From a virus (lineage: Duplodnaviria; Heunggongvirae; Uroviricota; Caudoviricetes), in IMG/VR virus record IMGVR_UViG_2541047885_000001: 21,692 nt of DNA; one strand, written 5' to 3'. This document shows, piece by piece, positions 1,141 to 21,692 of this stretch. The notes under the pieces were generated by a model. It saw nothing but the letters and a program-made list of their open reading frames with translations, ran no database searches and was not told the origin of the DNA. Within the stretch, counting starts at the first letter, position 1; the number at the start of each line of letters is the position of its first letter. The translations under genes and the position numbers were made by a program.

Positions 1141-1154
1141 GATAGTTTCGTTTT

Positions 1155-2363: not shown

Positions 2364-2378
2364 TTCATATCTCCTTAG

Positions 2379-2447: not shown

Positions 2448-2483
2448 CAATCATTGCAAGTAACTCAATATTTGGTGAAGAAC

Positions 2484-2915: not shown

Positions 2916-2926
2916 GAAGAACAAAA

Positions 2927-2947
2927 GGCGTGTACATATTACACGTC
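2927..2947 (+). other. Hairpin between mnt-like and the downstream gene (possible partial terminator or attenuator)
   Basis: GGCGTGTA / TACACGTC stem with a 5-nt loop, followed by TTTAATA. Confidence 0.3.
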
Positions 2948-3005
2948 TTTAATACAATTGAAAAACGCCACATTACTGATGTATGTTACAACAAGGAGCG
3001 ATATT

Positions 3006-3569: not shown

Positions 3570-3580
3570 AGGTGTTTAAC

Positions 3581-6500
3581 TCACCGCATCACCGGATCCA
3601 CCTGGTTTATTAGTGGCGCAATCCAGAACAGGTTATTGCCTGGTATCAGGGTTCGGGCATTATGCACAATACGATCACCGGCATCACCATTCAACACTCC
3701 TGCGGTCACATCAATGATGCTATCCGCAAGACCAAATGACGGTCCGAATAGAGATCCTACGAATCCACGACTGGCATACCTAGACTGTGTGCCAGTGCCA
3801 AATAAAGCCCCCAGCCCAACAGCACCACCAGTAGCCTTTTCAGCCATGTTGTTATATTCCATCAATGGTCCAAGAATACCGGATCTATCTATACCCTCAA
3901 GCACCAGTTTCTCTGGTGACCAGTCAACATTTTTCCCTTTCGATGCTTCTTTAAGCGCATAGACCAGTGAGCCAAGAGCAATCTGAAATGCAGTGCCATA
4001 ATAAAATTGCGCAGTTCCTTCCTGTAACCCACCAAGTAGCGCACGGTTGTATGAAGCCGTTGTGAATGATTTAAACTGAAATATCGTTCGCCCCATTGGA
4101 GTACTCGCCCATAAAGGTGTGTCACCAATACCGGGGGTGATGATAGTGTTATTAACGTCTTTCAGAACCGCTGACTGGAATACTCCGGCAACGTACTGAT
4201 CATCCCATTTATCAAAGTTACCAATGTGCCATCCATCAATTACCTCGCCATGTTTCCCGAACTCACTGCGAATACGTGCAGCCATATTGTCGTTGATACC
4301 GAGTTTTGCCAGGCGGCGTGCAGGAAATGCACCGGACAAAATACCGTCTGAAATAACCATTCCGTTCATGGATTTGTTTATGTCATTAAAGCGATCCATG
4401 AGTGTCAGCTTGCCGAAGGCATCAGTAATTCGCTCCATTCCGGCTTCGACTGCTGTTGTCCTGGAAGAGCTGTCAACAAGATCACCAATTGCACGAGAGC
4501 GTGAATGCAGTACAGTTTCCAGTCCGATACCCATCTTCAACATCTCTTCTTTGCTGGCCTTAAATGCCGGTGATTGGGATATCTGAGAAGCATAGCCTTT
4601 CATGGTGTTACGGAAACCATTAACCATAACCCCTCTGGCCAGATCTGGAATAGCTGATACTGTCATTCCACCGAGTTTGGTCGTGAAGTTCACATCCCGC
4701 AGAAAAGCGCCAGCACGAACAAAAAACGAAGACGGATCATCAGGCATCCCATATGTACCAACAAGACGATCGCGTAATGCTGTTATGTCTCTGAGATCAT
4801 TTGCTCTTGATTTTGAAAGTCTGGACTGTTCTTTCCGTAATTCCTTTTCGTACTTTCGCATTAATGAATCGAGTTTACCCTGAGGAACAACTTCACCATT
4901 GCTCTCATAACGTGCTTTCAGATTTGCCACACTTTCGTCATATTTCGCCTTTATTTTTTCAGGCACTTCCCGTAACAGACTGTCATATTCGTCCTCAATT
5001 AATTGCAGACGCTCAGTCATAGTTCGTTTGCCAAATGTTCTCGTCAACTCAATTTCTGCTGCCGCTTCACGGATATGACGTTGCAGCACGTAATTCACAT
5101 CACTTTCAAGATAATCCCTGATAAGACTATCAGGAACATTTAATGTTCTTTCTTTCGTACTACCTGCGGCTTTTACAGAAAATACGCTGACAAAATCCTG
5201 TGGAACCTTAGCACCAGTAATTTTATTAATTACGATATCTGCTGCAATTTCAGCATCCTCAGGAACCAGTGTTTTATTTCCTCTCGACCACCAGTCAACC
5301 AAAATACGTCGAAATTTATCGCGTTCACTGATTATTTTTCCAACTTTATATATGCGTGGGAAATAGCTTGCCTGGCCTAATGCTTTCAGTTCTTCATCTG
5401 GCGGCAATAAACCAAGCTTTTGCATTTCAACTTTCACCCGATTTAATACAGTTCGCATCGCCTGCGCCGTTTCCTGAACAACAGGATTAGCATGCACATC
5501 ACCGCTTCGCATAGCATTCCCAACCTGCTGACGAAATGAATCAAAACTCATGTCACCACCATCAGCTTTATACTTTGCGTATGCCTGTTTATTTCCGACA
5601 ACAACAGCAGCTTCTTCACGCTGCCATCCACGTGTACGGGTTTCTACAGCTACCGGTGTTTCAATCCCCCTTTCATTTCCTTTAAGGGTGAAATTATTTT
5701 CGGCTAACTCCAGCGTTGTTTTTCGCACTGTCCTGGACGGAGACTCCATTAACCTTGTCAAAGGAGTAAGATAGCTCCCTGCTTTCCATGCAGCCTTTCC
5801 AACCACCCCACCAGAAACAGGGGTTAAATCATCCAGAGTCGCTGTATCAATTTTCATAGCACCAACACTACCACCATCGGAAAGCGAAGCGGCAGCCCTG
5901 TCAGTCACTGATGTAATGCTCATATTATCAAGAGCATCAGCAACCTCACGTGTGGCTGCAGCCCGGACGGATGGCGAAAGCGCAACACCAGCACTGGCAA
6001 ACACGCCGCTCATCATCGCCCCCGCTGCAACGTGAGCGGCACTTTCACCCCATGAGCGTGTTATTTGCTGATTATTCAGTACAACCTCGCTTAATGCTGT
6101 ACCGGCAGCACCAATCGCAATCTGTGAGCCAATACGCGCCAGTGCCCCTCCTTGAGCACCGGGAATAAACATTGACGCAACAGTAACCGGATCCATTCCC
6201 GCAGCAATACTGGCAAGGGTTCCAACTACGCCAGCATCAGACAATAAACGTCTGTCTTCATTTTCATCATCTATCTGCTGCTTAATCCACGCCGTTTCCT
6301 CTGGTGATCGGGAATCTGCAAATTTCGCCCCCCAGTATTCATAACCGTGCAACTCATTTTTATCAGCATATGGGTTATAACCCTCGACCGGTTCAAACTG
6401 TCTGGCTGGGCGGAAAAAACCAGACAGAATATTGTTCTGTCGCATTGCAGCCCCCCATACGGAAGGCTCAGGTGGCAATGGCTCAGGATTAGCCCCTTCC

Positions 6501-6595
6501 GGAAGGGCAACATCAAACCCAGTTTGTTCCGGCAAAACATTACCTGACGGGATCAGTCCGTTATTAAGATCTTCAGCTTGTGCATAAACTGGCAT
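3581..6595 (-). CDS. Internal virion / DNA-ejection protein (1004 aa)
   Basis: Last gene of the late operon before immI (the position of P22 gp16). Long coiled-coil-like segments and Gly/Ala-rich hydrophobic stretches. ATGA start/stop overlap with the upstream gene at 6595. Confidence 0.8.
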   Translation of the reverse strand: MPVYAQAEDLNNGLIPSGNVLPEQTGFDVALPEGANPEPLPPEPSVWGAAMRQNNILSGFFRPARQFEPVEGYNPYADKNELHGYEYWGAKFADSRSPEETAWIKQQIDDENEDRRLLSDAGVVGTLASIAAGMDPVTVASMFIPGAQGGALARIGSQIAIGAAGTALSEVVLNNQQITRSWGESAAHVAAGAMMSGVFASAGVALSPSVRAAATREVADALDNMSITSVTDRAAASLSDGGSVGAMKIDTATLDDLTPVSGGVVGKAAWKAGSYLTPLTRLMESPSRTVRKTTLELAENNFTLKGNERGIETPVAVETRTRGWQREEAAVVVGNKQAYAKYKADGGDMSFDSFRQQVGNAMRSGDVHANPVVQETAQAMRTVLNRVKVEMQKLGLLPPDEELKALGQASYFPRIYKVGKIISERDKFRRILVDWWSRGNKTLVPEDAEIAADIVINKITGAKVPQDFVSVFSVKAAGSTKERTLNVPDSLIRDYLESDVNYVLQRHIREAAAEIELTRTFGKRTMTERLQLIEDEYDSLLREVPEKIKAKYDESVANLKARYESNGEVVPQGKLDSLMRKYEKELRKEQSRLSKSRANDLRDITALRDRLVGTYGMPDDPSSFFVRAGAFLRDVNFTTKLGGMTVSAIPDLARGVMVNGFRNTMKGYASQISQSPAFKASKEEMLKMGIGLETVLHSRSRAIGDLVDSSSRTTAVEAGMERITDAFGKLTLMDRFNDINKSMNGMVISDGILSGAFPARRLAKLGINDNMAARIRSEFGKHGEVIDGWHIGNFDKWDDQYVAGVFQSAVLKDVNNTIITPGIGDTPLWASTPMGRTIFQFKSFTTASYNRALLGGLQEGTAQFYYGTAFQIALGSLVYALKEASKGKNVDWSPEKLVLEGIDRSGILGPLMEYNNMAEKATGGAVGLGALFGTGTQSRYASRGFVGSLFGPSFGLADSIIDVTAGVLNGDAGDRIVHNARTLIPGNNLFWIAPLINQVDPVMR

Positions 6596-9312
6596 TATTT
6601 AGATCCCCACGAAAAGTAATCTTTAAATTTGTCCATACGTTCGTTATGCAGGCGCTGATACTGCTCATCCAGAGCGCGATGCTTGTCTTTGAAGTTTCGT
6701 ATAGCCTGTCCACGCATAATTTCTTCCTGCTCGTACTGCTCCCGTTCCTGCTGCATTTTCTTATAAGGTTCCCAATCTTCTAGTGATGGTTCCCAACGCA
6801 TAGGACGCCCATGTTTGTTATAAAACGGCTGGACCCGATCGATGCCATTTTCATCCTTAGTTCTTACCATAATGGCGTAATCACCATTACGGGGTGTTAA
6901 CACGTCAGGGGTTATGAATAATTCGCCATTAATACGACTCTCAGGGGTTTTTGTCTCAACTACAGGAGCATTACCTGACGTGATCCCAAGCAACGTCGGA
7001 CTGGTTGTTATAATCTCTTTGCGCTCACCGTACATCAGCCGTTCTTTTTCAGCTTTCCACTGCGCCGCCTGCCAGCCTGACGGCCCATATTGATAAAGCG
7101 CCTCCGGTGCATATTTCATAAACTGCGCTTCTCCGTTGACCTCGCTGATACTCCAGGTGCGGGCTATCTGCTGGTTGGTCATTTGCTTCGCTACGTCAGC
7201 GTTACCACCAGCAACGCGGTAGTTAATGTCATACAGCGTCTGATAGTCATTACGGAATCTAGCTGCTTCCGGCGTCTGGTCATCCGCAGACGGATCCCAA
7301 CGGAACCACTGCGCCATATTGCTGACAGCAGAATTCATCGCCTTGCTGCGATCATTTTTGTACTCTTTTGAACTCTGCGTTGATGCCAATTGAGCTTTAA
7401 GAGCATCGGTCTGGTTGTATGTAAGGTTCTGCGCCTGCTCGATAGCCGCATCAGCAGACATGCCAGAATCAGTTAGTTGCTTAACAGTCAGATAAAAACC
7501 CTGCATATCCTTCGGCATATTTCCAATAGATGCATTGTCTGTTTCATATAACCGACTAAACAAATTCGCTGCATTTTTAACCACTTCCTGATTGCTGGAT
7601 CGGGATACTGCTGAAAGCTGCGTGATGACCTGCGAAGGCATTATGCCAGTCTGAGCCACAAGCCGAACAACCCCATCATGAGTGGAGACATCATTAATAC
7701 GAAAGTTCTGCGCCATTTCTGTGTAATCAGCAGCTTTCTGCATTGACTTGTTGCTTGGGTCTAATTTTTCACCTATTGTCAGCGCCTCATTGAATCTGCG
7801 TGAATCCCGTTGCGCCTGAATTGCTTCATTTGATCTCTGAAGCAATGCAGACAATTTTCCGTAAGCATCGAGTTTTAACGCATAGTGAGGATCGTTAACC
7901 TCAGGCTTCACTTTCTGCATTTCTTCTTGCTGCTGAGAAGGAGGTAAATACTGAATTGCCTGGAATATTCTCGCGTTATCAATCGCTATATCCAGTTGAT
8001 TGATTATTTTATCTGCATTTTTTCCATACCCCCTGATGATAGTCTCCTGAGCCGGTATATAATCTGGAACCTCACCGTTATATAGCTGGGCCATGGTGTT
8101 ATTAATAGCTGGCTCAAGCTGTTCTAATATTAACTTCCTTTGCTTTTCTATCTGACTATTAGCAAGGTTATCTATTTGATAAATAGTCAGCGGATCCATT
8201 CCAGTTTTATTTTTTCTATATCGGGAAAGCCACCCTTGTGTTTCTGATGGAAGATTTCGGATAAATTCTTCTTCTGATATTTCACCTTTACGTGGATCAC
8301 CGACTTTGGCGATCAGTTTATCCACGTTACCCATCCCCCAGTTATATGCTGCTCCGGTCAATATTTCGGAACCGTACTTACCATACAGTTGATTTACATA
8401 GTCACTGGCGAGCATTTCATGCTGTTGTTCGTCCGTAGGGTTGTATTCAACGCCACGTTTGGCCGCCAGTTCTTTCCCTGTGCCCGGCATTAACTGGTAT
8501 TTCCCCTGGGCCCTCTCTCCAGAAGATGTTTTCGGTCCTTCAAGAATACTACCATCAGGATTAAAATGACGATCACCTGATTCAACAAGGCGTATGGCAC
8601 GCATGTCCATGCCTCCAGAATCATTTTTCTGAAACTGACCATTTAACCATCCTTCCGGATTAGCAGCGGCATAATTCTTCGCCCGCATTTCTGTGGCACT
8701 GCGATCATCACTTTCTATTTCTTCCAGAATGCGTTCTTGTGACCATCCCCTGGCTGCTCCATATCTGGCAATGGCTACCATTCTGGAATTTCTGGCTAAA
8801 GTGGCAGTTTGCGGGTCATTCCAGGCATCCGCTTCATTTTGTATCCATAATTTTCTCGTTGCCTGATATTGCTCATCTTCATAGGCATTTGTCTGCCCTA
8901 TCTCATGTCTGAGAACTCCAGTACTGAACTGAATTTTCTGTGTTCTGGCTTGTTGCAAAAACATATTTCTTGCTGCTTCATCAGTCAATGAAGCAGCTAT
9001 TTCTTCCACATCCTGATCAAATCCAGATATGTACTCTTGCCCCTTACCAATCGCATTTTTGCCTTGTTGTGCATAAAAACCGGTTTGAGGGTTATAAAGA
9101 CGTTCATTGCTGCGCTGATTAAGCTGAAGTATGGCATCCTGAGACAATGCAACATTCGCTTTCTGCCTGGCTTCACCATATGCCACCGCATACTGATCTG
9201 CGACATTCGCCAGCACCTGACCTGCTTGAGGAACATCGAAGGTTTGAAAACCACCGGTTTGCACACCACGACTTTGCACCTGGCGTCCGGATGTAGTAGG
9301 AACAACAGGCAT
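6595..9312 (-). CDS. Internal virion protein with a lytic transglycosylase (SLT) domain (905 aa)
   Basis: Residues ~235-335 (about 8308..8610) carry an SLT-like signature: VESGDRHF, GKYQLMPGTG, AAYNWGMG. Position and size fit a T7 gp15/gp16-type core protein. Confidence 0.85.
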   Translation of the reverse strand: MPVVPTTSGRQVQSRGVQTGGFQTFDVPQAGQVLANVADQYAVAYGEARQKANVALSQDAILQLNQRSNERLYNPQTGFYAQQGKNAIGKGQEYISGFDQDVEEIAASLTDEAARNMFLQQARTQKIQFSTGVLRHEIGQTNAYEDEQYQATRKLWIQNEADAWNDPQTATLARNSRMVAIARYGAARGWSQERILEEIESDDRSATEMRAKNYAAANPEGWLNGQFQKNDSGGMDMRAIRLVESGDRHFNPDGSILEGPKTSSGERAQGKYQLMPGTGKELAAKRGVEYNPTDEQQHEMLASDYVNQLYGKYGSEILTGAAYNWGMGNVDKLIAKVGDPRKGEISEEEFIRNLPSETQGWLSRYRKNKTGMDPLTIYQIDNLANSQIEKQRKLILEQLEPAINNTMAQLYNGEVPDYIPAQETIIRGYGKNADKIINQLDIAIDNARIFQAIQYLPPSQQQEEMQKVKPEVNDPHYALKLDAYGKLSALLQRSNEAIQAQRDSRRFNEALTIGEKLDPSNKSMQKAADYTEMAQNFRINDVSTHDGVVRLVAQTGIMPSQVITQLSAVSRSSNQEVVKNAANLFSRLYETDNASIGNMPKDMQGFYLTVKQLTDSGMSADAAIEQAQNLTYNQTDALKAQLASTQSSKEYKNDRSKAMNSAVSNMAQWFRWDPSADDQTPEAARFRNDYQTLYDINYRVAGGNADVAKQMTNQQIARTWSISEVNGEAQFMKYAPEALYQYGPSGWQAAQWKAEKERLMYGERKEIITTSPTLLGITSGNAPVVETKTPESRINGELFITPDVLTPRNGDYAIMVRTKDENGIDRVQPFYNKHGRPMRWEPSLEDWEPYKKMQQEREQYEQEEIMRGQAIRNFKDKHRALDEQYQRLHNERMDKFKDYFSWGSK

Positions 9313-9878
9313 CAGTAACCTCCTATTTTGAATCGGGAGTCAGAATTCATAAAACCTGAGTTAGATAACATTGGCGTGTTTCCTTGCTTACTAATCGGAT
9401 TGATACTTCCGCCACCCAACTTATATGCACCGTATGCTTTTAGTGGTGCCGTTAACAAAGTGCTGGTCATCGATGATTTAGCAGCCGACTGAGCAGCAGC
9501 CCCCTGTGCCTGAGCATTCATTCCCTGAACCTGATACCCATATGCCTCACGCTGAGCATTATTCACTGTCGTTAACGCATCAAGAGTGCCGAACTGAGCA
9601 TTATCCGCAAAAACGTCAAGAGCTGTTCCGCTACTTAATTCCGCACCGGTAGCACCCATAGTAGCCGCCGCAGTGCCTGAGCGTTGACGCATTTCACGAC
9701 GACGCTGATCCGCTTCAATATTCCCACGATTGATTGAATCCTGTGCCTGAGCTTCAGCAATTTCAGCATTCCGATCAGCTATGGCTGACTGGTATTTTGC
9801 CTGCTTGCTCTGGCTGTACATTGACGCGGCTGTGGATGCCACTGTGACGGCAACCAAAGCGATGGCTGGGTTACACAT
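9312..9878 (-). CDS. Putative membrane-associated internal virion protein (188 aa, gp14-like by position)
   Basis: N-terminal hydrophobic segment (PAIALVAVTVASTAAS) then an Ala/Gln-rich region; start/stop overlaps with both neighbours. Confidence 0.7.
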   Translation of the reverse strand: MCNPAIALVAVTVASTAASMYSQSKQAKYQSAIADRNAEIAEAQAQDSINRGNIEADQRRREMRQRSGTAAATMGATGAELSSGTALDVFADNAQFGTLDALTTVNNAQREAYGYQVQGMNAQAQGAAAQSAAKSSMTSTLLTAPLKAYGAYKLGGGSINPISKQGNTPMLSNSGFMNSDSRFKIGGY

Positions 9879-10342
9879 TATTTTCTCTCCATGTGAAATC
9901 TGTGGAAATTAAGACCAAGAGCACCATAAGGCGCGGCTTCTTCAAGCCTGAATCCAAGCCAGTGCAGCCATGCTCTGGCAACATGGTTTCGCTCGTCGAC
10001 GTAGTTTTCCAGGCGCGGATAAACTGCCAGCATCTGCTGCAATACAGGGCGGCAGTGGCGAAGAAATGTCTTCTGATATTTTTCAATACGGCTGGTTCCT
10101 ACCAGCCAGGGCGTACCATTGCCACCGATCATTGACGCCGGAGATACGCCAAACATGGTTACCAGTTCTCCGTTCGCAAATCCTGACCAGGCCATAGTCG
10201 CAGTACGCAGACCAACACGCAGCGCATCTTCGGTAGTCATCAGTGATACCGCATACAGTTCGTCAATATCAGCCTGACGAACATCCGGCAAAATCATCTG
10301 AAGATGCTCTTCGGTAGCGGGAATAATTTGAACATCGATCAT
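9878..10342 (-). CDS. Putative internal virion protein (154 aa, gp13-like by position)
   Basis: ORF coupled to both neighbours by overlapping start/stop codons; sits between the tail tubular B homologue and the core proteins. Confidence 0.65.
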   Translation of the reverse strand: MIDVQIIPATEEHLQMILPDVRQADIDELYAVSLMTTEDALRVGLRTATMAWSGFANGELVTMFGVSPASMIGGNGTPWLVGTSRIEKYQKTFLRHCRPVLQQMLAVYPRLENYVDERNHVARAWLHWLGFRLEEAAPYGALGLNFHRFHMERK

Positions 10343-13418: not shown

Positions 13419-13474
13419 AAGTTTCTATACTCCTGCAATAAAGGGGCCGAAGCCCCTTGTCTGATTCGCGAGGC

Positions 13475-13819
13475 TTACACGCCCAGTTCTTTACGCTTAT
13501 CTGCGATCTTCTCGCGTAGCGTTTCGGCTTTGGCGTTATGGTGTGGCTTCTCGTTAAAGAGCAATTCGTACTCTTCACGGAGCTTATCCAGTTCACCATC
13601 ATCTGACACATCGTTGATGATTTTGGTGCTGGTTGCTGCCATTGACACCTTTCCTGCAACTTTTGCTTTTGCCTGTCTGGCTGCATCGTTAACAGGTTCC
13701 AGTGCGCTACCAGGCTCACCTTCGTATTCGATTTCTGCCCCCTCCGGCCACAGAGTGTTATGGATATGAGAGAGGCGCAGAACGCGGTATCTTGGTTTCT
13801 CACCTGACATCGATATCAC
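13475..13819 (-). CDS. Small virion-associated protein (114 aa), possibly head completion or staple
   Basis: ORF between the capsid-adjacent gene and tail tubular A; charged, helical C-terminus. Confidence 0.6.
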   Translation of the reverse strand: MISMSGEKPRYRVLRLSHIHNTLWPEGAEIEYEGEPGSALEPVNDAARQAKAKVAGKVSMAATSTKIINDVSDDGELDKLREEYELLFNEKPHHNAKAETLREKIADKRKELGV

Positions 13820-13820
13820 C

Positions 13821-14258
13821 TTAACCAGTTACTTTTGAGCGGATCGGGTACGGCGTATTGGCATCAACATCCAGACTGATACCCGCAGTGAATTTGCCAG
13901 CCGTTAGTGGGCCAGTTGCGACGGAGTAGTTAACACGCAGATATCGCTGAACACCGGCAGGCACCTTTGCAGAAACAACTCGTTTACCTGCTGTCAGGGC
14001 GGTCTTTGCCAGTGCGCCACTATCATAAATAGTGGTCCATGAGCTGTTATTCTCACTCGTCTGCAACTGGATGTTTACAGTTGCATCACCGCTTGCCGCG
14101 GCGGCTGTGTTAACCAGCGCCCAAAACTCAAGCGGGTAACCCACGCCGATATCACGACGTTTTCCGTCAATTGGACCGAGATCGATTACGTCAGTAGAAG
14201 CCGCGGTATTCGTAACCGCCTGAGCTTCGGAGAACATCAACAGTTTGTCGGTGATCAT
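13821..14258 (-). CDS. Putative capsid decoration / head-associated protein (145 aa)
   Basis: Directly downstream of the major capsid gene; Ala/Thr/Val/Gly-rich, beta-strand-like composition. Confidence 0.6.
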   Translation of the reverse strand: MITDKLLMFSEAQAVTNTAASTDVIDLGPIDGKRRDIGVGYPLEFWALVNTAAAASGDATVNIQLQTSENNSSWTTIYDSGALAKTALTAGKRVVSAKVPAGVQRYLRVNYSVATGPLTAGKFTAGISLDVDANTPYPIRSKVTG

Positions 14259-14309
14259 CTTCTTTCTCCATTAGTGGGTCTGTTACGACCCACAGGTTAA
14301 TAACAGGCG

Positions 14310-15302
14310 TTACACCACGCGGGCTTCTGTTTCCAGAAGCGCATCAGTTTCACGGATTGGTACACCACGGAATGAAGTCCACCACTCGCCTTCTGTCTCT
14401 TTTACGCTGATAGCCAGAGATGTTTTCTCCAGAGACTGCAGATCAAGAGCCTGGCCTACAGTGCGGTTCATGTAGAACACCGGGCGGCCCATGCCAAGGT
14501 TTGGAATGCGATGTAGTGCTTTAACCATCAACTTCGCAATATTTGCGGCAGAGGATGGTTCTGAAATATTGCTGACATCGATGTTTGCAATGCGAACAAC
14601 ATAACGCCAGTCACGCAGAGCAAGTCCGTTATCCCATTTGTAATGGGTGCGATAGCCTTCGTACTTGCCGCCATTAGCATCTTCCAGTGTCACCTGGCCT
14701 TTATCTTCCATCTGGATGCCAGCCTTCTGCCCTTTCGGGAAGATGCCATGCACGGTGTTTTCGCCCCACACCACTAACCAGATTGAGGTGTTATCTGTAC
14801 CCGTGCCACCAGCATCAATGATGTTCTGAGCATTACCCGCAGACAGGCTGGAATAGCGGGAGGACAGTCCCATAAACTGCTGAGGGTTAACGCTGGAATC
14901 ACCATAAAACAGCGTCTGCGCCATCTGCTGATTCATCGCTTCAATAAATGCGCGGTCTTCAGAAAGGCGGAATTCGGCGGTATTGCCGTTCAGATCAGCC
15001 AGTGACTTATCGACTTCAGCATAGGTTTCCAGCATGCCCACGGAATCGGTTACCTGCACTGTGGTTGATTTGCTTGGCTGTACGCCATAGTTCAGCAAAC
15101 GCCAGGTAGCTGAAGGTAAACCAGAACGAATGGTGGTTCGGTGTCCGGTAGGAAGGTTCCCTTCGACAAAAGGCATATCCTGAAGGATCGGGTTAGTTTG
15201 ACCGAGGAGCTCGATAATCTTATCGACTTTCCCGTTTGGATCGACGCGCTTACCCCAGTCAGCCAGCGTTAGCGCAGTTAAGCCTTTAACAGCCATTGTC
15301 AT
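14310..15302 (-). CDS. Major capsid protein (330 aa; more likely start is the ATG at 15296)
   Basis: Follows the scaffold gene; size and composition typical of HK97-fold coat proteins of T7/epsilon15-like podoviruses. GAGG sits 8 nt upstream of the second ATG. Confidence 0.85.
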   Translation of the reverse strand: MTMAVKGLTALTLADWGKRVDPNGKVDKIIELLGQTNPILQDMPFVEGNLPTGHRTTIRSGLPSATWRLLNYGVQPSKSTTVQVTDSVGMLETYAEVDKSLADLNGNTAEFRLSEDRAFIEAMNQQMAQTLFYGDSSVNPQQFMGLSSRYSSLSAGNAQNIIDAGGTGTDNTSIWLVVWGENTVHGIFPKGQKAGIQMEDKGQVTLEDANGGKYEGYRTHYKWDNGLALRDWRYVVRIANIDVSNISEPSSAANIAKLMVKALHRIPNLGMGRPVFYMNRTVGQALDLQSLEKTSLAISVKETEGEWWTSFRGVPIRETDALLETEARVV

Positions 15303-15310
15303 TTCCTCTC

Positions 15311-16006
15311 TTATTTGCCATAGAGCACTTCGGCCGCACTACGCTGGCCTTCATTACCACCGGTGACCATGCCATCTTCAGACATCGCCTTTCCGATTTT
15401 CACGAACGTTTTGACCAGATCAGGGTGATTACCCAGCCCGGTGGTGTTCAGATATTCTTTGAGTTCAGGTGTCCCGAACTGGTCAAGCGCACGCTGTGCG
15501 GCGCTAAGGTTAGAAATCAACTTGTCGCCACCGATTTCTTTGTCGGCTTTTACATCCGCAGCCCACTGCTCGGTTGTTTTCTGCCAGGCTTCTGCCTGGC
15601 GCTGCTGAACACCTGCCAGAATCTTCGGATAAGCATCAACCAGCTTTTGCGCTTGCTCGTTGGTCAGGTTTAGTTCTCGCGCCACCGGCTCGAATTCCTT
15701 CAACGCTTCTGTATCCAGCTCTACGCCTTCGGCAGCCTGAAACTCGTACTTTTCAGGCGCACCCTCTGGTTTATCGCCGTCCTTTTTTTCACCCTGCTTA
15801 TCGTTTTCAGGCTTTTTGTTATCAGCAGGTTTATCGCCATCAGCAACAGGTTGTGGCTTATCACCTTCCTGTTGTGATGGATCACCAACTGGAGCAGGGT
15901 TATCACCTGCAGGCGCTGACGGTTCTGACGCAGCCGGAGCTGCTCCACCATCGACTGGTTGCTCATTGCAAAGACGGCGATACAGCAAACGCTCAAATAA
16001 ATTCAT
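15311..16006 (-). CDS. Scaffolding protein (231 aa from ATG 16006; the ORF track starts at GTG 16012)
   Basis: Acidic, Pro/Ala/Asp/Lys-rich low-complexity N-terminal half and helical C-terminal half; lies between portal and capsid genes. AGGAG 6 nt upstream of ATG 16006. Confidence 0.8.
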   Translation of the reverse strand: MNLFERLLYRRLCNEQPVDGGAAPAASEPSAPAGDNPAPVGDPSQQEGDKPQPVADGDKPADNKKPENDKQGEKKDGDKPEGAPEKYEFQAAEGVELDTEALKEFEPVARELNLTNEQAQKLVDAYPKILAGVQQRQAEAWQKTTEQWAADVKADKEIGGDKLISNLSAAQRALDQFGTPELKEYLNTTGLGNHPDLVKTFVKIGKAMSEDGMVTGGNEGQRSAAEVLYGK

Positions 16007-16008
16007 GA

Positions 16009-16305
16009 TCACTCCTGTTCACTGGCCTCTTTGGCCATCTTCAAATACTGTTCAGGGCAATGCGCCATAACGCGCTGAAACAGTTCCAGCGCCAGATTGC
16101 GTTGCCCCTCATTAAATGCCATTGCCATAGCGTCCATCGGTGAGATAGCGGAAAACACACGGCCTTTCTCCAGCACCGACCAGACAACGCGACGCCCCTG
16201 TTCACTGCTCATGACAAAGCAAATGTCATCAATTTCACGCTGTGCCATGTCACGTTGCTTACGGGCGTTTTCTTCTTTCAGTTGATCGTCTTCGTAATCT
16301 GTCAT
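16009..16305 (-). CDS. Hypothetical small protein (98 aa) between portal and scaffold
   Basis: ATGA overlap with the portal stop (16302..16305); its stop is 2 nt before the scaffold ATG. Confidence 0.6.
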   Translation of the reverse strand: MTDYEDDQLKEENARKQRDMAQREIDDICFVMSSEQGRRVVWSVLEKGRVFSAISPMDAMAMAFNEGQRNLALELFQRVMAHCPEQYLKMAKEASEQE

Positions 16306-17981
16306 TGTGATTGCCCACCCTGACCACTAACTGCATTCGCCATAGCTGACAAAACACTCGGATCCGAAGTTTTAGCTTCGCTTAGCGTCTTGGCACCCTG
16401 TGCCGCCGCCATCCCCATCGCCATCATTTGTTGCTGCTGTTGTTGCTGTGCCCGTTGCTGGCGAGCCTGCTCAACCTGTTCCTGCGGAACAATGACGGTT
16501 GGAGACACTCCGGACATATCAGCGAATGCATCGATCGCCTGATCAACGTTGAGTTTGTCGAGAGCTTCTGGTTTCGCTTGCGCAAGTTGACCAATGAAGT
16601 TAACCGTGGACGCCAGACTGGACAGGCCGATAGACTTCTGCGCCTGAGCCATGACGGAAATGTATTCGACCTTCAGGGGCATACCTTCCATCGCGTCAGG
16701 CGGTGGCGGCAGCATGTTTTTACGCACCATCATCGAGAAAGCGCGGTCAATGAGAGGATTAAGACATTCGTCGTTCAGACGCTCCAGAACCGGCCCCAAC
16801 ATCAGAAGTTTTTCTTCTTTCATTTCGATCACCGCTTCAACAGGCATCGAGCGGGTATTGATGTTCTGCAACATCATGAACAGATCGACAAAGTAGGCGC
16901 TGTTAATGATTTGACGGGTGTCCTGAATGTCTGCCACCAAATCTGCTGTACTGGGGTTAACCAGATAAGCAGGCCTGAAACCATCCTGACCAGTAATCTG
17001 ATCGATATACGTGATGTCGCCAGGAAGAAGGGAGGCACGCTGATTCTTGAGGGAAGTCGGAGCAACCATCGGCGGATTGGTGGCTTTATCAATCAACTGC
17101 GACTTGCGCTTCTGGAGAAGCTGCAATGCCTTAACAGGTCCAAGCGCCAGCATACCCGGGCATGATGATCCATAAACATCTTCGCCGTTAACTTCCCAGC
17201 GCGGAGCCATAATTGGAAACTCATCGAATCCGGACTCACGCAACAACTTGTCGTTATCGCCACCAACCTCGTAATAAACCGATTTGAATGGCTTGTTCTT
17301 GCTATCCAGCTTCGATGTATCGCGGTCAATGTTCGGGTAAACCGAATGCATCACTTCAATCCACTTCTCGTAGGTTCCGCTTTCCCACATGCTTTTTACG
17401 GATTCGCTGACGTTATTTAGCCCGAACTCCTGAACAAGCTGACGAACAGTCATAGAGAACTTGCGAAAACAGGTGTCCACACTGCCACGAGGTGAGTTAG
17501 CCAGGTAGTAACTGCCTATCGGGAATGGCATTGTGCGAATGATGTCCTCGTCATCCTCCAGCACTGCCATTGCACCAGTGCTGTATGTGCCGAGGCTTCC
17601 GTATAACTGCGGCAGCGACTGATAGAGATTCGACTTATTGAACATATCGTTCATGCGGTTCTGCACCGCCTCAAGCCACAACTTAACAGGGCCATAATCC
17701 ATCATTTCAGGATCTGGCGTAGCCAGGCGAAACCACGGACGCGCGGGGCTTGTGATGCCTGACATCATGCCGCTGGCGAGAGTGCGCGCCGCCATAGTCC
17801 CGGTCGAATCAATAATGCGTGTATTGCGTCGATCGTTACGGTTGACCTCAGAAGTCAGAAAGCGGGAACCACGCGGGTTGATGTAATCACTCAACTCGCG
17901 CCAGTGCGGCTCGAACGACTGACGCTCGCTTTCAAGTTGTGCGAACTGTTTGTTCAATCGCTCTTTAGTTGTTTCCGCCAT
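16302..17981 (-). CDS. Portal (head-to-tail connector) protein, 559 aa
   Basis: Size and position typical of a T7 gp8 / epsilon15-type portal; RBS GGAG 8 nt upstream of the ATG. Confidence 0.9.
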   Translation of the reverse strand: MAETTKERLNKQFAQLESERQSFEPHWRELSDYINPRGSRFLTSEVNRNDRRNTRIIDSTGTMAARTLASGMMSGITSPARPWFRLATPDPEMMDYGPVKLWLEAVQNRMNDMFNKSNLYQSLPQLYGSLGTYSTGAMAVLEDDEDIIRTMPFPIGSYYLANSPRGSVDTCFRKFSMTVRQLVQEFGLNNVSESVKSMWESGTYEKWIEVMHSVYPNIDRDTSKLDSKNKPFKSVYYEVGGDNDKLLRESGFDEFPIMAPRWEVNGEDVYGSSCPGMLALGPVKALQLLQKRKSQLIDKATNPPMVAPTSLKNQRASLLPGDITYIDQITGQDGFRPAYLVNPSTADLVADIQDTRQIINSAYFVDLFMMLQNINTRSMPVEAVIEMKEEKLLMLGPVLERLNDECLNPLIDRAFSMMVRKNMLPPPPDAMEGMPLKVEYISVMAQAQKSIGLSSLASTVNFIGQLAQAKPEALDKLNVDQAIDAFADMSGVSPTVIVPQEQVEQARQQRAQQQQQQQMMAMGMAAAQGAKTLSEAKTSDPSVLSAMANAVSGQGGQSQ

Positions 17982-17995
17982 TTCAATGACTCCGG

Positions 17996-18202
17996 TTACT
18001 GACCAAGCAGCGTTTTACCGCTGGTATTAGCGGTTGATGTGTCACCCTGAGAACCGGTAAGCAGCGTAGAACTACGACCAGCAGCAGCGCGACGGCGACG
18101 AGTTTCTTCGTCGCGGGCATCAACAACGGCGGCATCCTGCTCCTGTGGTGCTGCCTGAACTTCTGGTGTTGCAGGCACTGATGGTGAGCTACCCATGCAC
18201 AT
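17996..18202 (-). CDS. Hypothetical small protein (68 aa) directly upstream of portal
   Basis: ATG at 18202 preceded by GGAGTCATTGA-T; the same 11-mer precedes the portal ATG. Hydrophilic, Ala/Arg-rich. Confidence 0.45.
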   Translation of the reverse strand: MCMGSSPSVPATPEVQAAPQEQDAAVVDARDEETRRRRAAAGRSSTLLTGSQGDTSTANTSGKTLLGQ

Positions 18203-18222
18203 ATCAATGACTCCGTACGCAA

Positions 18223-18300
18223 TTAAATTATTACCAATTTAACCACACATGATTTATTTATCGTAGGTAGTTGACATTTAACGCACAAATTATTACCTTT
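18223..18300. promoter_or_regulatory. AT-rich promoter-like region at the edge of the terL-portal insertion
   Basis: Plus strand: TTGACA (18271..18276), 17 bp, TACCTT. Minus strand: TTGTGC, 17 bp, TACGAT. Confidence 0.3.
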
Positions 18301-19011
18301 CAGGTAACCAAAGAGTTCATTCCGGTTACTAACCTGACTGGCTTGTCGTTAAATTGAACAGGTGGAGTGAGCTTTTATTTTGAGCAGTACGGCGTATGGC
18401 ACATGCGCCGATAGCGGTCTGGATACGTTTAAGGGGCACCCTCCCTTGCTCGGGCAAACGAACCAGGTAGCCGGAATGTGCAAGTCGAGCGGTTTTATTC
18501 CGCGCACGGGGATTCACCATCCCGGCGATCAGGTGTGACACCTCGGAAGAGACGAGGATGCAACAGGTAAGAGCATTGAGATTGATCGTCGTTCCTGGGC
18601 CCAAGGTCTGCTCGAAGTCAGTGCTCTTTCCGTTGTGGTGAATGCGCAGGCTGATGCGCACCCCGTGAACGTGGGGGAATGGGTAAGGCATAAGCCTGAG
18701 TTGGAAGACAAGCTGCGTGAATAGCCGGAAGTCAGGGTTACCCAACAAACTCAGTGAAAATCATGACGCATATCCTCTTGAGAGAGTGGCAGCTAACACT
18801 GAGCATATTTCAAGCCGGAGATCAGCACCGGCCACCACAACCCAATCACGTTAGGACCGTGATACGGCAGTACCAGGCAATGCGTGTAGCTTTGGCGGTG
18901 GCAGTTCTCCTTCTTCTGACCACCGCCCTTTTTACAGCAGAACGCCATTCCGATGACGTTGCGCTGTAAACCCTGCATCACCCGCCAAGGAAGGCACTCC
19001 GTTGATCATTC
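18300..19011 (+). ncRNA. ORF-poor ~700-nt region; candidate structured RNA or long regulatory leader (function unknown)
   Basis: No convincing ORF on either strand despite ~55% GC; bounded by a consensus -35 upstream and an intrinsic terminator placed 12 nt before the next RBS. Several GC-rich hairpins visible. Confidence 0.2.
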
Positions 19012-19036
19012 GCCCGGTTCGTCCGGGCATTTTTTT
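19012..19036 (+). terminator. Intrinsic terminator or attenuator immediately upstream of the 110-aa gene
   Basis: GCCCGG-TTCGT-CCGGGC hairpin followed by a T7 tract, then AAGGTGA RBS and the ATG at 19049. Confidence 0.6.
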
Positions 19037-19048
19037 AAGGTGAAAATC

Positions 19049-19381
19049 ATGAAAGAGAAGACTGCAGCTGAGCGCTATGCCGCAGCTATCAATGCCGCGA
19101 TGGCGATTGTAAACCTGCGTGAAGAGATTAAAGATCTCCTTGCAATTATCCATAACAACCTGACATGTACAGAGTTGCTTGGCGGTCAGTACAACGGTGA
19201 GGCGGTGAAGGAGGCATTTAAAAATGCCGAGGTAGGAATAATTCCAGCAAACTATGTCAAGGCTGAATGTGTGCTCCTAAAGGCACGAGTGAGTCTGCAT
19301 GAAGATCCTGGTAATCTCGGTCGAACTGCAATGCGTTACGTGATAGACGAGTCGAATGCCAAACACAATCTACCGAAATAA
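19049..19381 (+). CDS. Hypothetical protein (110 aa), cargo gene inserted between terL and portal on the opposite strand
   Basis: ATG at 19049 with AAGGTGA 5 nt upstream; in ORF-track frame 18953..19381; followed by the palindrome and a terminator. Confidence 0.7.
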   Translation: MKEKTAAERYAAAINAAMAIVNLREEIKDLLAIIHNNLTCTELLGGQYNGEAVKEAFKNAEVGIIPANYVKAECVLLKARVSLHEDPGNLGRTAMRYVIDESNAKHNLPK

Positions 19382-19385
19382 CACC

Positions 19386-19397
19386 GTGACATGTCAC
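19386..19397. repeat. 12-bp perfect palindrome GTGACATGTCAC, copy 2 (preceded by CACCGTG)
   Basis: Identical to 1129..1140; lies 5 nt after the stop of the 110-aa gene and just before a terminator hairpin. Confidence 0.8.
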
Positions 19398-19401
19398 AAA
19401 C

Positions 19402-19428
19402 AGCCAGCCTATGAGCTGGCTTTGTTTT
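19402..19428 (+). terminator. Terminator hairpin between the converging 110-aa gene and terL
   Basis: AGCCAGC-CTATGA-GCTGGCT stem-loop followed by TTGTTTT. Confidence 0.5.
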
Positions 19429-19471
19429 ATCCTCACCAGAGGATATCAACGATATTATCCCCACCAGCGGA

Positions 19472-20947
19472 TTAAGCATAGGGATCGTAATCTGTGATGG
19501 CCTTGCCTTGCTGGTTCTGCTGACCGGGAATTCGCAGACGCTTCGACACAGGGAACGCAAACGTCAGCAGTAGCGCATCGCCTTTACCCGGCGAACGCCC
19601 AAGCCGCTCCTTGATATCCTCCTTCGGTTCGATAACGATTTTACCGTCCACGCGAACTTTGTACTCTGCCGCCGACAGGTCGTCTGCAGTTTCCTGGTCA
19701 TCCAGCATGCCGCCCAGCCTCAGCCATGTCTTACATGAGTTGAACATCTCCCCACGCTTGTTAAGCATCTGCGGGTCAGTAGACGCGCCACCGAACGGAA
19801 CAAGTTGCCATGTACGACCCCAGCCGTCACCGATTGACTTCAAACCGGTTCCGTAACCGAAGTCGATGAACACCGCGTCAGCCTGATACTGGTCTTCAAA
19901 GTCAGCGATACGCTTCGCCATAATCAGATCGTCGGTAGTCTTGTTGCCAGTCCACAGCACCTTACTGTGTAGCCCCTGCCGCAGGTATATCACAGCGTCA
20001 TCAACGCCGGAGTATGCCGGGTCAACGCCGATTATCACCGGAGCATGTGCAACCTGCGCAGCGGTTACCACCAGTTTCATTGCCTCGTCAGTAAGACCGG
20101 TAGGGATAAACTGCAATTCAGATGCATCAGGGAATATGCCACGCACACGGATTTTAACGAAGTCGCTATCTTCCCCGTAGTCATCAACCCATTTCTGCAA
20201 CTGCTGTTTGTTGGTGCCTTCCACCGTCCTGCTGTCAATCTGCGCAGTTTTCCAGCGGTGTTTGTATTTGCGGAAACATTCACGGAAACGCCCGGTGTTA
20301 CGTGTAGGGTTTCCGAAAGCCACCCAGATAATCTCAGTGTCTTCGTCCGTTAGCGCACCCTCGGCAACTTCCCACACCAGATCCGCAATGTTCGACGCTT
20401 CATCAAATACCACGATGATGCGTTTACGCTCGTTGTGTAGTCCGGCGAATGCCTCAGTGTTGTGCTCAGACCAGGGGATTGCGTCAGCTCGCCACCGCTT
20501 GTCGTGCCCAGGGTCATTGCTGTACATCGCGGTAGCGGTACAGGTAAACCAGTCTTTCGTGATAGCAAGGTTTGACCACTTGATAATTTCCGGCCAGGTC
20601 TTCGTTCGTAGCTGGTTGTCGGTGTTGGCGGTCACCACGACCTTACAATCCTCGCAAGTGGACATGCCCCAGTTGATCAGCATTGAGATGAATGCGGATT
20701 TACCAATACCGTGACCAGAAGCACGTGCCAGCATAAGCGGCTGATATCGCGTCTCTGGATTCTGCAGGTGATCACGTATCTCTCGGAACGCATCAGCCTG
20801 CCACTGACGTGGGCCGGTGGCATGTGCCAGTTCAGTCCCCTCTTCCCCCCATGGGAACGCATAGAGGGCATAGCCAAGCGGATCGTGAGTGAACCCTGCA
20901 ATATCCTCGATTAACTGCTCTTCAGGAGATAACGCTGTATCTGTCAC
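19472..20947 (-). CDS. Terminase large subunit (491 aa)
   Basis: Walker A-like ARASGHGIGKS, Walker B-like IIVVFDEAS, and a C-terminal nuclease-like region (IIGVDPAYSG); ATGA overlap with the terS stop. Confidence 0.92.
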   Translation of the reverse strand: MTDTALSPEEQLIEDIAGFTHDPLGYALYAFPWGEEGTELAHATGPRQWQADAFREIRDHLQNPETRYQPLMLARASGHGIGKSAFISMLINWGMSTCEDCKVVVTANTDNQLRTKTWPEIIKWSNLAITKDWFTCTATAMYSNDPGHDKRWRADAIPWSEHNTEAFAGLHNERKRIIVVFDEASNIADLVWEVAEGALTDEDTEIIWVAFGNPTRNTGRFRECFRKYKHRWKTAQIDSRTVEGTNKQQLQKWVDDYGEDSDFVKIRVRGIFPDASELQFIPTGLTDEAMKLVVTAAQVAHAPVIIGVDPAYSGVDDAVIYLRQGLHSKVLWTGNKTTDDLIMAKRIADFEDQYQADAVFIDFGYGTGLKSIGDGWGRTWQLVPFGGASTDPQMLNKRGEMFNSCKTWLRLGGMLDDQETADDLSAAEYKVRVDGKIVIEPKEDIKERLGRSPGKGDALLLTFAFPVSKRLRIPGQQNQQGKAITDYDPYA

Positions 20948-21543
20948 TGATTGCCATCCTGACGTTCTTTCAGTCTCTTCCTGGCTGCCGCTATGCGATC
21001 AGCAATTGTCACATTCACATTAACATCCAGGCGTTCTTTGAATGCGTTGACGTCGACGTGCTTACCAATCAGTTCGAGGTTCTTCACCTTGTCAGGCCAT
21101 TTAATTTTTTTGAGGATGCCAACCAGCTCTTTCTCGTCTCCACGGCCTTCGAACATGTCGGCCAGTTCGAAACCTGTCAGGTACTGCCGCCAGACCTTAG
21201 GCCATTCCGAGACCGGCTTGATGCTCATATCGTCGTTGAGAATGTCAATCACGTCCATCTGGTCGATCTCCACCAGGCGCATGAGAACGTAATCAGCACT
21301 GACGCGCATTCGTTTGTTGCGCTCCTCCATCAACTCGGCAATCCGTTTCTGAATGCGTTCATCGCGCATCATGACACTGGCTTTAACTGCCGCTGTATTT
21401 GGGGAGAATCCTGCATTAATCGCAGCCTGAGTCTGGTTTTCAGGCGTTTTGATGTATGACTGGCAATAAGCCTCCTGCATTGCTGTTAGTGGCTTAAATT
21501 GCGTTGATTTGCGTTTATAGGTTTTAGGTTCAGCAGGCATCAT
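20944..21543 (-). CDS. Terminase small subunit (~199 aa from the ATG at 21543/21540; the ORF track extends to TTG 21588)
   Basis: Immediately upstream of and coupled to terL; N-terminal region has a terminase small subunit-like pattern (LTAMQEAYCQSYIKTPENQTQAAINAGFSP). GGTGG lies 5 nt before the second ATG. Confidence 0.8.
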   Translation of the reverse strand: MMPAEPKTYKRKSTQFKPLTAMQEAYCQSYIKTPENQTQAAINAGFSPNTAAVKASVMMRDERIQKRIAELMEERNKRMRVSADYVLMRLVEIDQMDVIDILNDDMSIKPVSEWPKVWRQYLTGFELADMFEGRGDEKELVGILKKIKWPDKVKNLELIGKHVDVNAFKERLDVNVNVTIADRIAAARKRLKERQDGNQ

Positions 21544-21550
21544 AACCACC

Positions 21551-21579
21551 GTGGTAATAGTTACCGTTGTGGTAATAGT
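21551..21579. repeat. Direct repeat GTGGTAATAGT x2 (7-bp spacer) in the terS 5' leader
   Basis: 11-mer at 21551..21561 and 21569..21579, between the upstream terminator and the probable terS start. Confidence 0.5.
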
Positions 21580-21584
21580 ACCAT

Positions 21585-21612
21585 GCAAAATAAAGCCGCC
21601 ATAGTTGGCGGC
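21585..21612 (-). terminator. Intrinsic terminator upstream of terS
   Basis: GCCGCCA-TAGT-TGGCGGC hairpin; on the minus strand it is followed by TTTATTTT. Confidence 0.5.
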
Positions 21613-21616
21613 AGTA

Positions 21617-21692
21617 TGAACCGCCCCGGGAATCCTGGAGACTAAACTTCCTGAGAAAGAGGTAAACAGGATGACTAAAAATACTCGTTTTT
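21617..21692 (+). mobile_element. Left end of an IS3-family insertion sequence (IS629-like), truncated by the window edge
   Basis: TGAACCGCCCCGGGAATCCTGGAG... matches my recollection of the IS629 left terminus; an orfA start (MTKNTRF) follows with RBS AGAGGT. Confidence 0.7.
21671..21692 (+). CDS. IS3-family transposase OrfA, first 7 codons only
   Basis: ATG at 21671; MTKNTRF matches the IS629-type OrfA N-terminus from memory. Confidence 0.65.

Follow-up and report, generated by a model that had tools for sequence, protein, structure and literature searches.

The window analyzed here, the whole of a 21,692-nucleotide stretch of Caudoviricetes DNA (IMG/VR record IMGVR_UViG_2541047885_000001), is very probably the late-gene (virion) half of a TL-2011b-type temperate podovirus prophage of Escherichia coli, belonging to the epsilon15/phiV10 group (Uetakevirus) and carrying an accessory immunity cassette homologous to the immI region of phage P22. 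An initial annotation, made from the letters of the DNA, had described a T7/epsilon15-like virion module joined to a P22-type immI region and had found no specific named phage for this combination. Its observation is confirmed, and its mosaic interpretation is right in substance and partly supported overall. The mosaic is real but ordinary, and the prophage type is common and already sequenced.

When the whole window was compared by megablast with 50,697 phage records, Escherichia phage TL-2011b (NC_019445 / JQ011317), whose source is the E. coli O103:H25 Norwegian outbreak strain and which a 2024 paper lists as a Uetakevirus (PMC11522302), matched at 97.6% identity over 93% of the window. The same search gave ~51% window coverage for phiV10-type phages and 78% identity for epsilon15. 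Piecewise alignment resolves the similarity to TL-2011b into colinear blocks at window positions 1 to 13418 (96.2%), 13426 to 18577 (98.5%), and 19402 to 21617 (94%). The RefSeq record of TL-2011b contains the same genes in the same order, including an “anti-repressor Ant” and an “Arc-like repressor” at the same place, so the combination can be assigned to a named phage after all. The two share the replacement of the large ejection proteins by two genes, the set of ant, arc-like, mnt-like, and orf187 genes, a cassette with a YafO-like gene, and an inverted repeat involving a Bro-N gene. The window differs from TL-2011b in being without the gp10 staple gene (~320 bp), in having a different 0.8-kb segment with no tRNA-Arg at 18577 to 19402, and in its intact mnt-like gene, where TL-2011b as recorded has one more G near codon 9; elsewhere, the terminase region is just 94% identical.

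Among 5,426 complete E. coli genomes, over which all of the E. coli counts given here were taken, at least 41 contain 80% or more of the window at 97 to 98% identity, and the window capsid gene is found in 527. Chance is not an issue, since TL-2011b and at least 41 complete genomes have the whole arrangement at this level of identity. The region is essentially near-identical to one well-described phage group, which argues against a combination outside the known phages. The practical value of this result is correct annotation, as a TL-2011b-type Uetakevirus prophage and not as a new hybrid phage. In OkiPb01683, a complete relative, the prophage lies between yfgI and guaA and has the standard layout of a temperate podovirus, with an integrase, RecT, a CI-like helix-turn-helix gene, replication genes, the virion module, a tailspike, an acyltransferase, and a lysis cassette. 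The closest complete relatives likewise have an integrase at guaA, a CI-like repressor, a tailspike, O-antigen modification genes, and a lysis cassette, which in the case of the window lie beyond it.

Two other members of Uetakevirus are more distant. Phage phiV10 shares 95 to 98% DNA identity with window positions 9524 to 21617, and epsilon15 has ~78% DNA identity overall and 60 to 94% protein identity in shared genes of the same order. Their genes for terminase, portal, protease, adaptor, nozzle, gp13, and gp14 follow one another as they do in the window. However, both encode three large ejection proteins at the place of two unrelated ones in the window, both have gp10, and neither has mnt, arc, sar, or an ant of the P22_AR_N type. 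phiV10 carries only a cassette with isrK/C4 RNAs and a Bro-N gene, and epsilon15 carries neither antirepressor cassette.

The map of open reading frames (ORFs) consists of one long minus-strand block from 21588 to 3581 followed by a short mixed-strand region at 1 to 3580, and all of the virion genes below are on the minus strand. The order and sizes given in the initial annotation for the portal (559 amino acids [aa]), capsid (330 aa), gp11-like protein (201 aa), gp12-like protein (823 aa), and core proteins agree with this map, and the likeness to epsilon15 is borne out at the protein level. The block begins with the terminase small subunit (TerS, 214 aa; 20944 to 21588; PF03592, 2.6e-29), which is 89% identical to epsilon15 gp1, and the large subunit (TerL, 491 aa; 19472 to 20947), which is 94% identical to gp2; the terminase genes match phrog_2 and phrog_51. 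The portal (16302 to 17981) matches PF12236, the T7-type head-to-tail connector family (1.6e-187), and the portal in PDB entry 8ck0 (6e-179), with 81% identity to epsilon15 gp4. Next are a 233-aa protease-like protein, which may be a scaffold, and a 98-aa member of the Bbp19 family (together 15311 to 16305; phrog_458 “protease,” 5e-111, and PF25181, 6.8e-17), which are 76% and 66% identical to epsilon15 gp6 and gp5, respectively. The major capsid protein (14310 to 15302) belongs to the epsilon15 GP7 family (PF20911, 1.9e-149) and is 43% identical to gp7. A Bbp16-family capsid cement protein (13821 to 14258; PF21190, 3e-47) is 36% identical to gp8, and a homologue of epsilon15 gp9 (13475 to 13819) is 40% identical to it; a match to phrog_590 falls within this gene pair (13475 to 14258).

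The tail and core genes complete the block. The gp11-like tail adaptor or connector (12813 to 13418) matches the “Connector Protein” of PDB entry 8ck1 (chain E, 2e-26) and is 85% identical to epsilon15 gp11, which according to its RefSeq note matches T7 tail tubular protein A by HHpred. The gp12-like tail nozzle (10342 to 12813) matches the “Tail Nozzle” of the same entry (chain A, 2.4e-216) and is 88% identical to epsilon15 gp12. A homologue of epsilon15 gp13, an internal virion protein of 154 aa (9878 to 10342; phrog_308, 2e-62), is 64% identical, and a T7 gp14-family core protein of 188 aa (9312 to 9878; PF24072 T7_gp14, 7.5e-8) is 60% identical to epsilon15 gp14. The last two genes encode a 905-aa internal virion protein with a lytic transglycosylase domain (6595 to 9312; PF01464 SLT, 1.3e-7; phrog_1044) and a 1,004-aa internal virion (ejection) protein (3581 to 6595), which matches phrog_342, “internal virion protein with endolysin domain” (4e-209). 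The 1,004-aa protein had no match in the PDB, and the 905-aa protein matched PDB entries through its SLT domain alone.

The T7 pattern proposed in the initial annotation holds in part. The order of genes agrees with that of the T7 gp8 to gp16 module: a portal, a scaffold or protease, a capsid, an adaptor (gp11), a nozzle (gp12), small core proteins, and large core proteins with a lytic transglycosylase, after which comes the receptor-binding protein. However, BLASTP of all the window virion proteins against T7 gp8 to gp19 found nothing significant, and relatedness to T7 is apparent solely at the level of gene order and of the profile families PF12236 and PF24072. The 1,004-aa protein appears to be distantly T7 gp16-like in its C-terminal part, and it has weak tblastn matches to gp16-type genes of T7-like phages. 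The window is unlike T7 in several respects: its terminase genes are upstream and those of T7 are downstream, its capsid belongs to the epsilon15/BPP-1 GP7 family and comes with a Bbp16 cement protein, its SLT domain is in the first large core protein and not at a gp16-like N terminus, and phages of this type are temperate.

The immI cassette occupies positions 1179 to 2915, outside the interval of 3581 to 21588 in which the initial annotation had placed the mosaic, and its genes, its RNA, the geometry of its promoters and operators, its homology to P22, and its conservation are all directly evident. The cluster predicted there is thus real, with matches for ant, sar, and an mnt-like gene, and all four components (ant, sar, arc-like, and mnt-like) are intact in the window. 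The antirepressor gene ant (314 aa; 1179 to 2123, minus strand) matches PF10547 (P22_AR_N, 9.6e-45) and phrog_524 and phrog_245, “anti-repressor Ant.” Its product is 40% identical to P22 Ant across the first ~217 aa, but no match to PF10548 (P22_AR_C) was found, and the C-terminal ~100 aa are unrelated to P22 Ant; instead, residues 214 to 314 are 83% identical to the C terminus of the TL-2011b Bro-N protein.

Upstream of ant, as the first gene of an arc-ant operon, is an arc-like gene (55 aa; 2196 to 2363, minus strand), similar in position and size to P22 arc (53 aa), and its product is probably a ribbon-helix-helix repressor. It aligns with P22 Arc in BLASTP (33% identity over 40 aa, pairwise E value of 4e-5) and matches phrog_228, “Arc-like repressor” (3.4e-5), with an hhalign probability of 61% and in register; an NCBIfam search with this protein found nothing. 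The mnt-like gene (143 aa; 2484 to 2915, plus strand) is divergent from arc-ant and matches PF03869, the Arc/Mnt ribbon-helix-helix family (1.2e-14). The protein is 32% identical across all 83 aa of P22 Mnt, and its best PDB match is the Mnt repressor (1MNT, 4e-7), ahead of Arc. Its N terminus is of the ribbon-helix-helix type, and its C-terminal extension is longer than that of P22 Mnt (83 aa). After TL-2011b, its nearest homologues in named phages include the Mnt proteins of many P22-like phages. The deposited TL-2011b gene has an extra G near codon 9 (ACTAAGGGATC versus ACTAAGGATC; window 2484 to 2520 versus ~5485 to 5525 of the fetched TL-2011b locus, L001), a +1 frameshift within the ribbon-helix-helix domain, which is why that record annotates just a shorter “hypothetical protein”; the gene is intact in both the window and OkiPb01683.

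Between the mnt-like gene and the last ejection gene is orf187 (187 aa; 3006 to 3569, plus strand; phrog_8033), which encodes a protein with an N-terminal membrane anchor from a family of unassigned function. The cluster is therefore a neighbor of the ejection genes but does not stand directly after them, as had been stated. orf187 is AT-rich (32 to 34% G+C) and occupies the slot of sieA in P22. A role as a SieA analogue was rejected, as there is no similarity to SieA, and a PADLOC match to a TIR-like protein (0.0026) was marginal and was rejected as evidence.

The antisense RNA sar is located at 2125 to 2192 on the plus strand (Rfam RF00262, 45.2 bits versus a gathering threshold of 43, E value of 1.9e-6, full model 1 to 68), and the RF00262 match recurs in TL-2011b and OkiPb01683. 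Its sequence is the complement of the leader and ribosome-binding site of ant. At its 3′ end is a terminator hairpin, GAAGCCCUGAC...GUUGGGCUUC, that differs only slightly from the P22 hairpin. A Psar-like promoter (TTGATA-17-TATACT with an upstream TG, 10/12 matches) lies within the first codons of ant at 2089 to 2117 on the plus strand, and its position relative to the ant start codon is that of the annotated Psar of P22. In the public records of this prophage type, sar is unannotated. The arc-like gene is named in the TL-2011b record and is a “hypothetical protein” in OkiPb01683, and the mnt-like gene is a “hypothetical protein” in TL-2011b and a generic “Arc family DNA-binding protein” in OkiPb01683.

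A search with the arc-like protein also found homologous cassettes, each with an mnt-like gene (142 to 147 aa), an arc-like gene (55 aa), and an antirepressor gene, in unrelated prophages of other genera. In Raoultella and relatives, the cassette lies between the tail-tube/chaperone genes and the tape-measure gene of a siphovirus-type prophage (L009 to L011, 8448 to 10862), and in Citrobacter it lies beside a P22-type tailspike and gtrABC in a podovirus-like prophage (L007, 8432 to 9877). The antirepressor partner in these cassettes varies, being either of the P22_AR_N type or of the Bro-N plus P22_AR_C type.

Transcription of arc-ant would start from a Pant-like sigma-70 promoter at 2399 to 2427 on the minus strand (TTGACA-17-GACAAT with TG, 10/12 matches). 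Six nucleotides downstream of its −10 element is a perfect 15-bp palindrome, GCCCCAC(C/G)GTGGGGC (2378 to 2392), a putative counterpart of the mnt operator. On the minus strand the window reads CCTCACCGTGtgc-TTGACA-tcaatgacgCACGGTGt-GACAAT-tgtttt-GCCCCACGGTGGGGC-taaggagatatgaa-ATG(arc), and the P22 counterpart reads TTGACA-tgatagaagcactctac-TATATT-ctcaat-AGGTCCACGGTGGACCT-...-ATG(arc). The palindromes GCCCCACGGTGGGGC of the window and AGGTCCACGGTGGACCT of P22, the latter being the annotated mnt operator, are both 6 nucleotides past the −10 element and have a common CCACGGTGG core. Two more CAC(C/G)GTG sites form an inverted repeat around the −35 element, one in the Pant spacer (2406 to 2412), at the position of the P22 arc operator, and the other just upstream of the −35 element (2431 to 2437).

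Alignment of the window, Raoultella, Citrobacter, and P22 shows that the −35 element TTGACA and the CACGGTGG core are invariant. The Raoultella and Citrobacter cassettes keep all three site positions in the same layout as in the window, with Arc-like proteins just 76 to 79% identical. This footprint across genera is the best evidence in the analysis for a function of the CAC-N-GTG sites. The Mnt-like and Arc-like proteins may recognize related half-sites, since each has a Q-x-R-x-R motif on the strand presumed to contact DNA (within PQLRIRLP for the Mnt-like protein and CQRRVRFP for the Arc-like protein). Downstream of ant is a terminator-like hairpin (1111 to 1128, minus strand; 7 pairs, 6 of them G-C, followed by TGTTTTT).

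Taken with P22, these features indicate that the cluster is best regarded as a true, divergent homologue of immI, with a promoter, operator, and sar geometry common to both. Because blastn of the window against P22 positions 9000 to 19000 gave no match, and thus no nucleotide similarity to immI, homology had to be established at the level of proteins, RNA, and operators. Both cassettes have the same set of four components, the window with an arc-like gene in the place of arc, with mnt divergent from arc-ant and with sar antisense over the arc-ant junction and beginning beside the ant start codon, and both have the TTGACA −35 element and a palindromic operator with the CCACGGTGG core 6 nucleotides after the −10 element. 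In both phages the cassette has the last ejection gene to one side and the tailspike gene to the other, mnt has a membrane-protein gene as its neighbor, and the orientation also matches: the late operon is followed by the opposite-strand membrane-protein and mnt genes and then by arc-ant in the late direction. In contrast, the proteins are only 30 to 40% identical, the Mnt-like protein has 143 aa versus 83 aa, Ant ends not in P22_AR_C but in an unrelated domain that a Bro-N protein also has, additional CAC-N-GTG sites take the place of the arc operator sequence, and the virion module that hosts the cassette is not P22-like. The label “P22-type” is thus apt for a divergent immI homologue but not for a region derived from P22.

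The cassette is a horizontally mobile accessory module and not a piece of P22. Villafane and colleagues (PMC2629481) gave the name “ant moron” to the slot between the ejection and tailspike genes in P22-like phages, and the epsilon15-like chassis uses the same slot, the tailspike being beyond the left end of the window. In epsilon15 the slot holds just a small ORF, and in phiV10 it holds a different cassette. The sar-arc-mnt core is present in 36 of the complete E. coli genomes, in a single copy each and at ≥99% identity in 31 of the 36, versus about 527 genomes with the window capsid gene. The stretch containing the mnt-like gene and orf187 has 33% G+C versus ~51% for the virion genes. The “ant moron” slot is therefore common to P22-like and epsilon15-like podoviruses, and an immI-type cassette with conserved operator-like sites moves among quite different phage chassis.

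The working of P22 immI, for which background is summarized in PMC2629481, suggests how the cassette might operate, with the assignment of proteins to sites and the target of Ant taken from homology to P22. In a lysogen, the Mnt-like repressor would bind the palindrome overlapping the Pant-like start and silence arc-ant. Upon infection, or upon loss of Mnt, Pant would fire and yield the Arc-like protein and Ant, and the Arc-like protein would then shut Pant off again via the CAC-N-GTG sites around the −35 element and in the spacer. The sar RNA, made from the promoter inside the 5′ end of ant, would pair with the ant ribosome-binding site and block translation. Where Ant is made, it would be expected to bind and inactivate the CI-type primary repressor of the prophage, tipping the switch toward lytic growth.

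Several observations weigh against the assignment of the window as a TL-2011b-type prophage with a homologue of immI. The sar match is only ~2 bits above the Rfam threshold, and its first stem-loop is weak. The arc-like protein scores 12.8 bits against the Pfam Arc family, below the cutoff of 20.4; its profile search of the PDB reached Arc at an E value of ~0.1, with spurious designed proteins as the top matches, and its AlphaFold2 model, built from 13 sequences, was too poor for a fold search (predicted local distance difference test [pLDDT] score of 56). As Ant is without P22_AR_C, its target could differ from that of P22 Ant. The frameshift in TL-2011b mnt means either that the module tolerates the loss of Mnt or that the record carries an error. 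Finally, no record in the collections searched is identical to the window, the best being at 97 to 98% and not 100%, which makes the window a new variant of a known prophage type and not a new type.

Some of these points would fit an immI-like cluster that is an inactive remnant or whose ribbon-helix-helix proteins serve otherwise, for example, as antitoxin-type regulators of the YafO-like toxin. The weak match of the arc-like protein to Arc and the frameshifted mnt-like gene of TL-2011b favor this, as does the presence of a YafO-like toxin gene, with no antitoxin family match, 300 bp beyond ant. However, the four components are intact, most genomes with the sar-arc-mnt core keep it nearly unchanged (31/36 at ≥99%), and the promoter and operator positions have been kept in three genera despite the divergence of the Arc-like proteins (76 to 79% identity). 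Furthermore, the toxin cassette is missing from many prophages with the immI core, and the toxin gene is on the opposite strand and behind terminators. We consider degeneration or another use of the cluster unlikely.

The other way to account for the junction of the two modules is a recent direct recombination between a P22-like and an epsilon15-like phage, giving a new hybrid type that no named phage represents, as the initial annotation implied. The immI gene set, its orientation, and its position from ejection genes to tailspike are indeed as in P22, and in its middle part ant has 85 to 88% DNA identity to its counterparts in the P22-like E. coli phage CUS-3 and in Salmonella phage S.Kent 1-2-1. 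Yet DNA similarity to P22 immI is lacking, the proteins have diverged to 30 to 40% identity, TL-2011b (JQ011317) and dozens of E. coli genomes already have the arrangement, and homologous cassettes also occur in non-P22 contexts, so that such an origin is contradicted and still less probable than a decayed cluster. A chimeric contig assembled from two prophages can be practically dismissed. Nothing specific points to it, although the sharp drop in G+C at 2400 to 3600 could resemble a join, and a phage genome and at least 41 closed chromosomes of E. coli have the same colinear arrangement. A TL-2011b-type prophage with a mobile, divergent immI homologue accounts for the window best.

At the left end of the window, a second antirepressor gene approaches ant. 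Positions 1 to 34 (plus strand) hold the tip of a Bro-N antirepressor-like gene, of which the last 10 nucleotides are visible, and its downstream sequence; the body of the gene is beyond the left end. These 34 nucleotides are the exact reverse complement of 1156 to 1189 and belong to one arm of a ~290-bp inverted repeat, of which this tip is in the window; the second arm is at 1155 to 1412. That arm is 95.7% identical to positions 3033 to 2777 of the TL-2011b locus L001 on the opposite strand, and in OkiPb01683 the inverted repeat has 292 nucleotides and is 91% complementary. The repeat consists of sequence common to ant and the convergent Bro-N gene, whose end is at window position 10; the final ~100 codons of the two genes specify sequences with 83% amino acid identity. 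In the relatives, the Bro-N gene is preceded by Rfam matches for isrK (63 to 77 bits) and C4 antisense RNA (78 to 80 bits), the P1/Gifsy-type form of control. This isrK/C4 plus Bro-N cassette is present in TL-2011b, OkiPb01683, and phiV10; the comparison covered L001 2082 to 3033 of TL-2011b, L004 13094 to 14033 and 15161 to 15452 of OkiPb01683, and L002 3088 to 3905 of phiV10.

The inverted repeat brackets a ~1.1-kb cassette with genes for the YafO-like toxin and small proteins. The YafO-like gene (181 aa; 306 to 851, plus strand) matches PF13957 (YafO_toxin, 1.2e-5), with 25.8 bits versus a cutoff of 25, and phrog_1651 (5e-51), and its TL-2011b homologue is a “YafO family toxin” in RefSeq. 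A 59-aa ORF (152 to 331, plus strand), also cargo between the repeat arms, overlaps it upstream, and a terminator-like hairpin (850 to 866) follows it. No recognizable antitoxin family match for it was found in the cargo at 152 to 1105. The remaining gene, a moron, encodes a 53-aa protein with an N terminus resembling a signal peptide or membrane anchor (944 to 1105, plus strand; phrog_14503 “membrane associated protein,” 2.3e-40), and its TL-2011b homologue is annotated as a “putative transmembrane anchored protein.” The immI core also occurs in many E. coli prophages without the toxin cassette (those in the class with 79% coverage).

This lineage thus has in its variable slot two convergent antirepressor cassettes that differ in their type of regulation, one P1/Gifsy-type and the other P22-type, and whose antirepressors have unrelated N-terminal domains and one common C-terminal domain. 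It is conceivable, but doubtful, that the shared C-terminal domain targets the repressor, that the lineage acquired an induction switch with two inputs by joining this domain to a P22-type Ant from elsewhere, and that the inverted repeat allows the toxin cassette to invert or the two antirepressor genes to swap ends. If functional, the dual arrangement would be a compact natural case of domain-swapped antirepressors under two different antisense-RNA controls and might be relevant to the induction of prophages in pathogenic lineages of E. coli. It is the one item here that might repay follow-up.

The virion module has further mosaic joints. Similarity to phiV10 begins at window position 9524, with the break inside the gp14-like gene, and beyond it the 905-aa and 1,004-aa proteins stand in place of three large proteins of phiV10 and epsilon15. 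The first 250 aa of the 905-aa protein alone resemble epsilon15 gp15 (42%). The 1,004-aa protein has no homologue in epsilon15 or phiV10 and, among named phages, occurs in TL-2011b only (98.6% by tblastn); the next matches are a Klebsiella prophage (36%) and small Vibrio podoviruses (~32%). Another joint separates the head-shell genes from their neighbors. The capsid, cement, and gp9 proteins are 36 to 43% identical to those of epsilon15 versus 81 to 94% for the terminase large subunit and small subunit, portal, adaptor, and nozzle, and the capsid matches that of Bordetella phage BPP-1 (PDB 3j4u, 5e-129) ahead of that of epsilon15 (3j40, 6e-86). Because the capsid is nearer to that of BPP-1 and is paired with a Bbp16 cement protein, the history of the head-shell genes differs from that of the flanking portal and tail genes (81 to 88% identical to epsilon15).

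The gp10 gene (~320 bp), named “capsid staple protein” by PGAP in OkiPb01683, is cleanly absent at a junction at 13419 to 13425, as alignment to TL-2011b, phiV10, and epsilon15, all of which have gp10, reveals. A query covering only the junction found exactly this gp10-less form in 68/5,426 genomes and in the isolated phage EC.W1-9, which indicates that gp10 is dispensable within the Uetakevirus-type group; phages with a Bbp16-type cement protein seem able to do without the staple. A larger count, of 303 gp10-less genomes, was rejected because flanking pieces had been joined across the gp10 gene.

A last difference from the named relatives is at 18577 to 19402, where a variable segment separates the gp3 homologue from the terminase genes. 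At this slot, both TL-2011b and phiV10 have a tRNA-Arg and an ORF resembling Gp49/Sf6 gene 66. The window has no tRNA-Arg there and instead has two ORFs without a family match, of 139 aa (18329 to 18748, minus strand) and 142 aa (18953 to 19381, plus strand). The segment, itself free of any tRNA, is partly similar (87%) to Enterobacter phage BUCT554.

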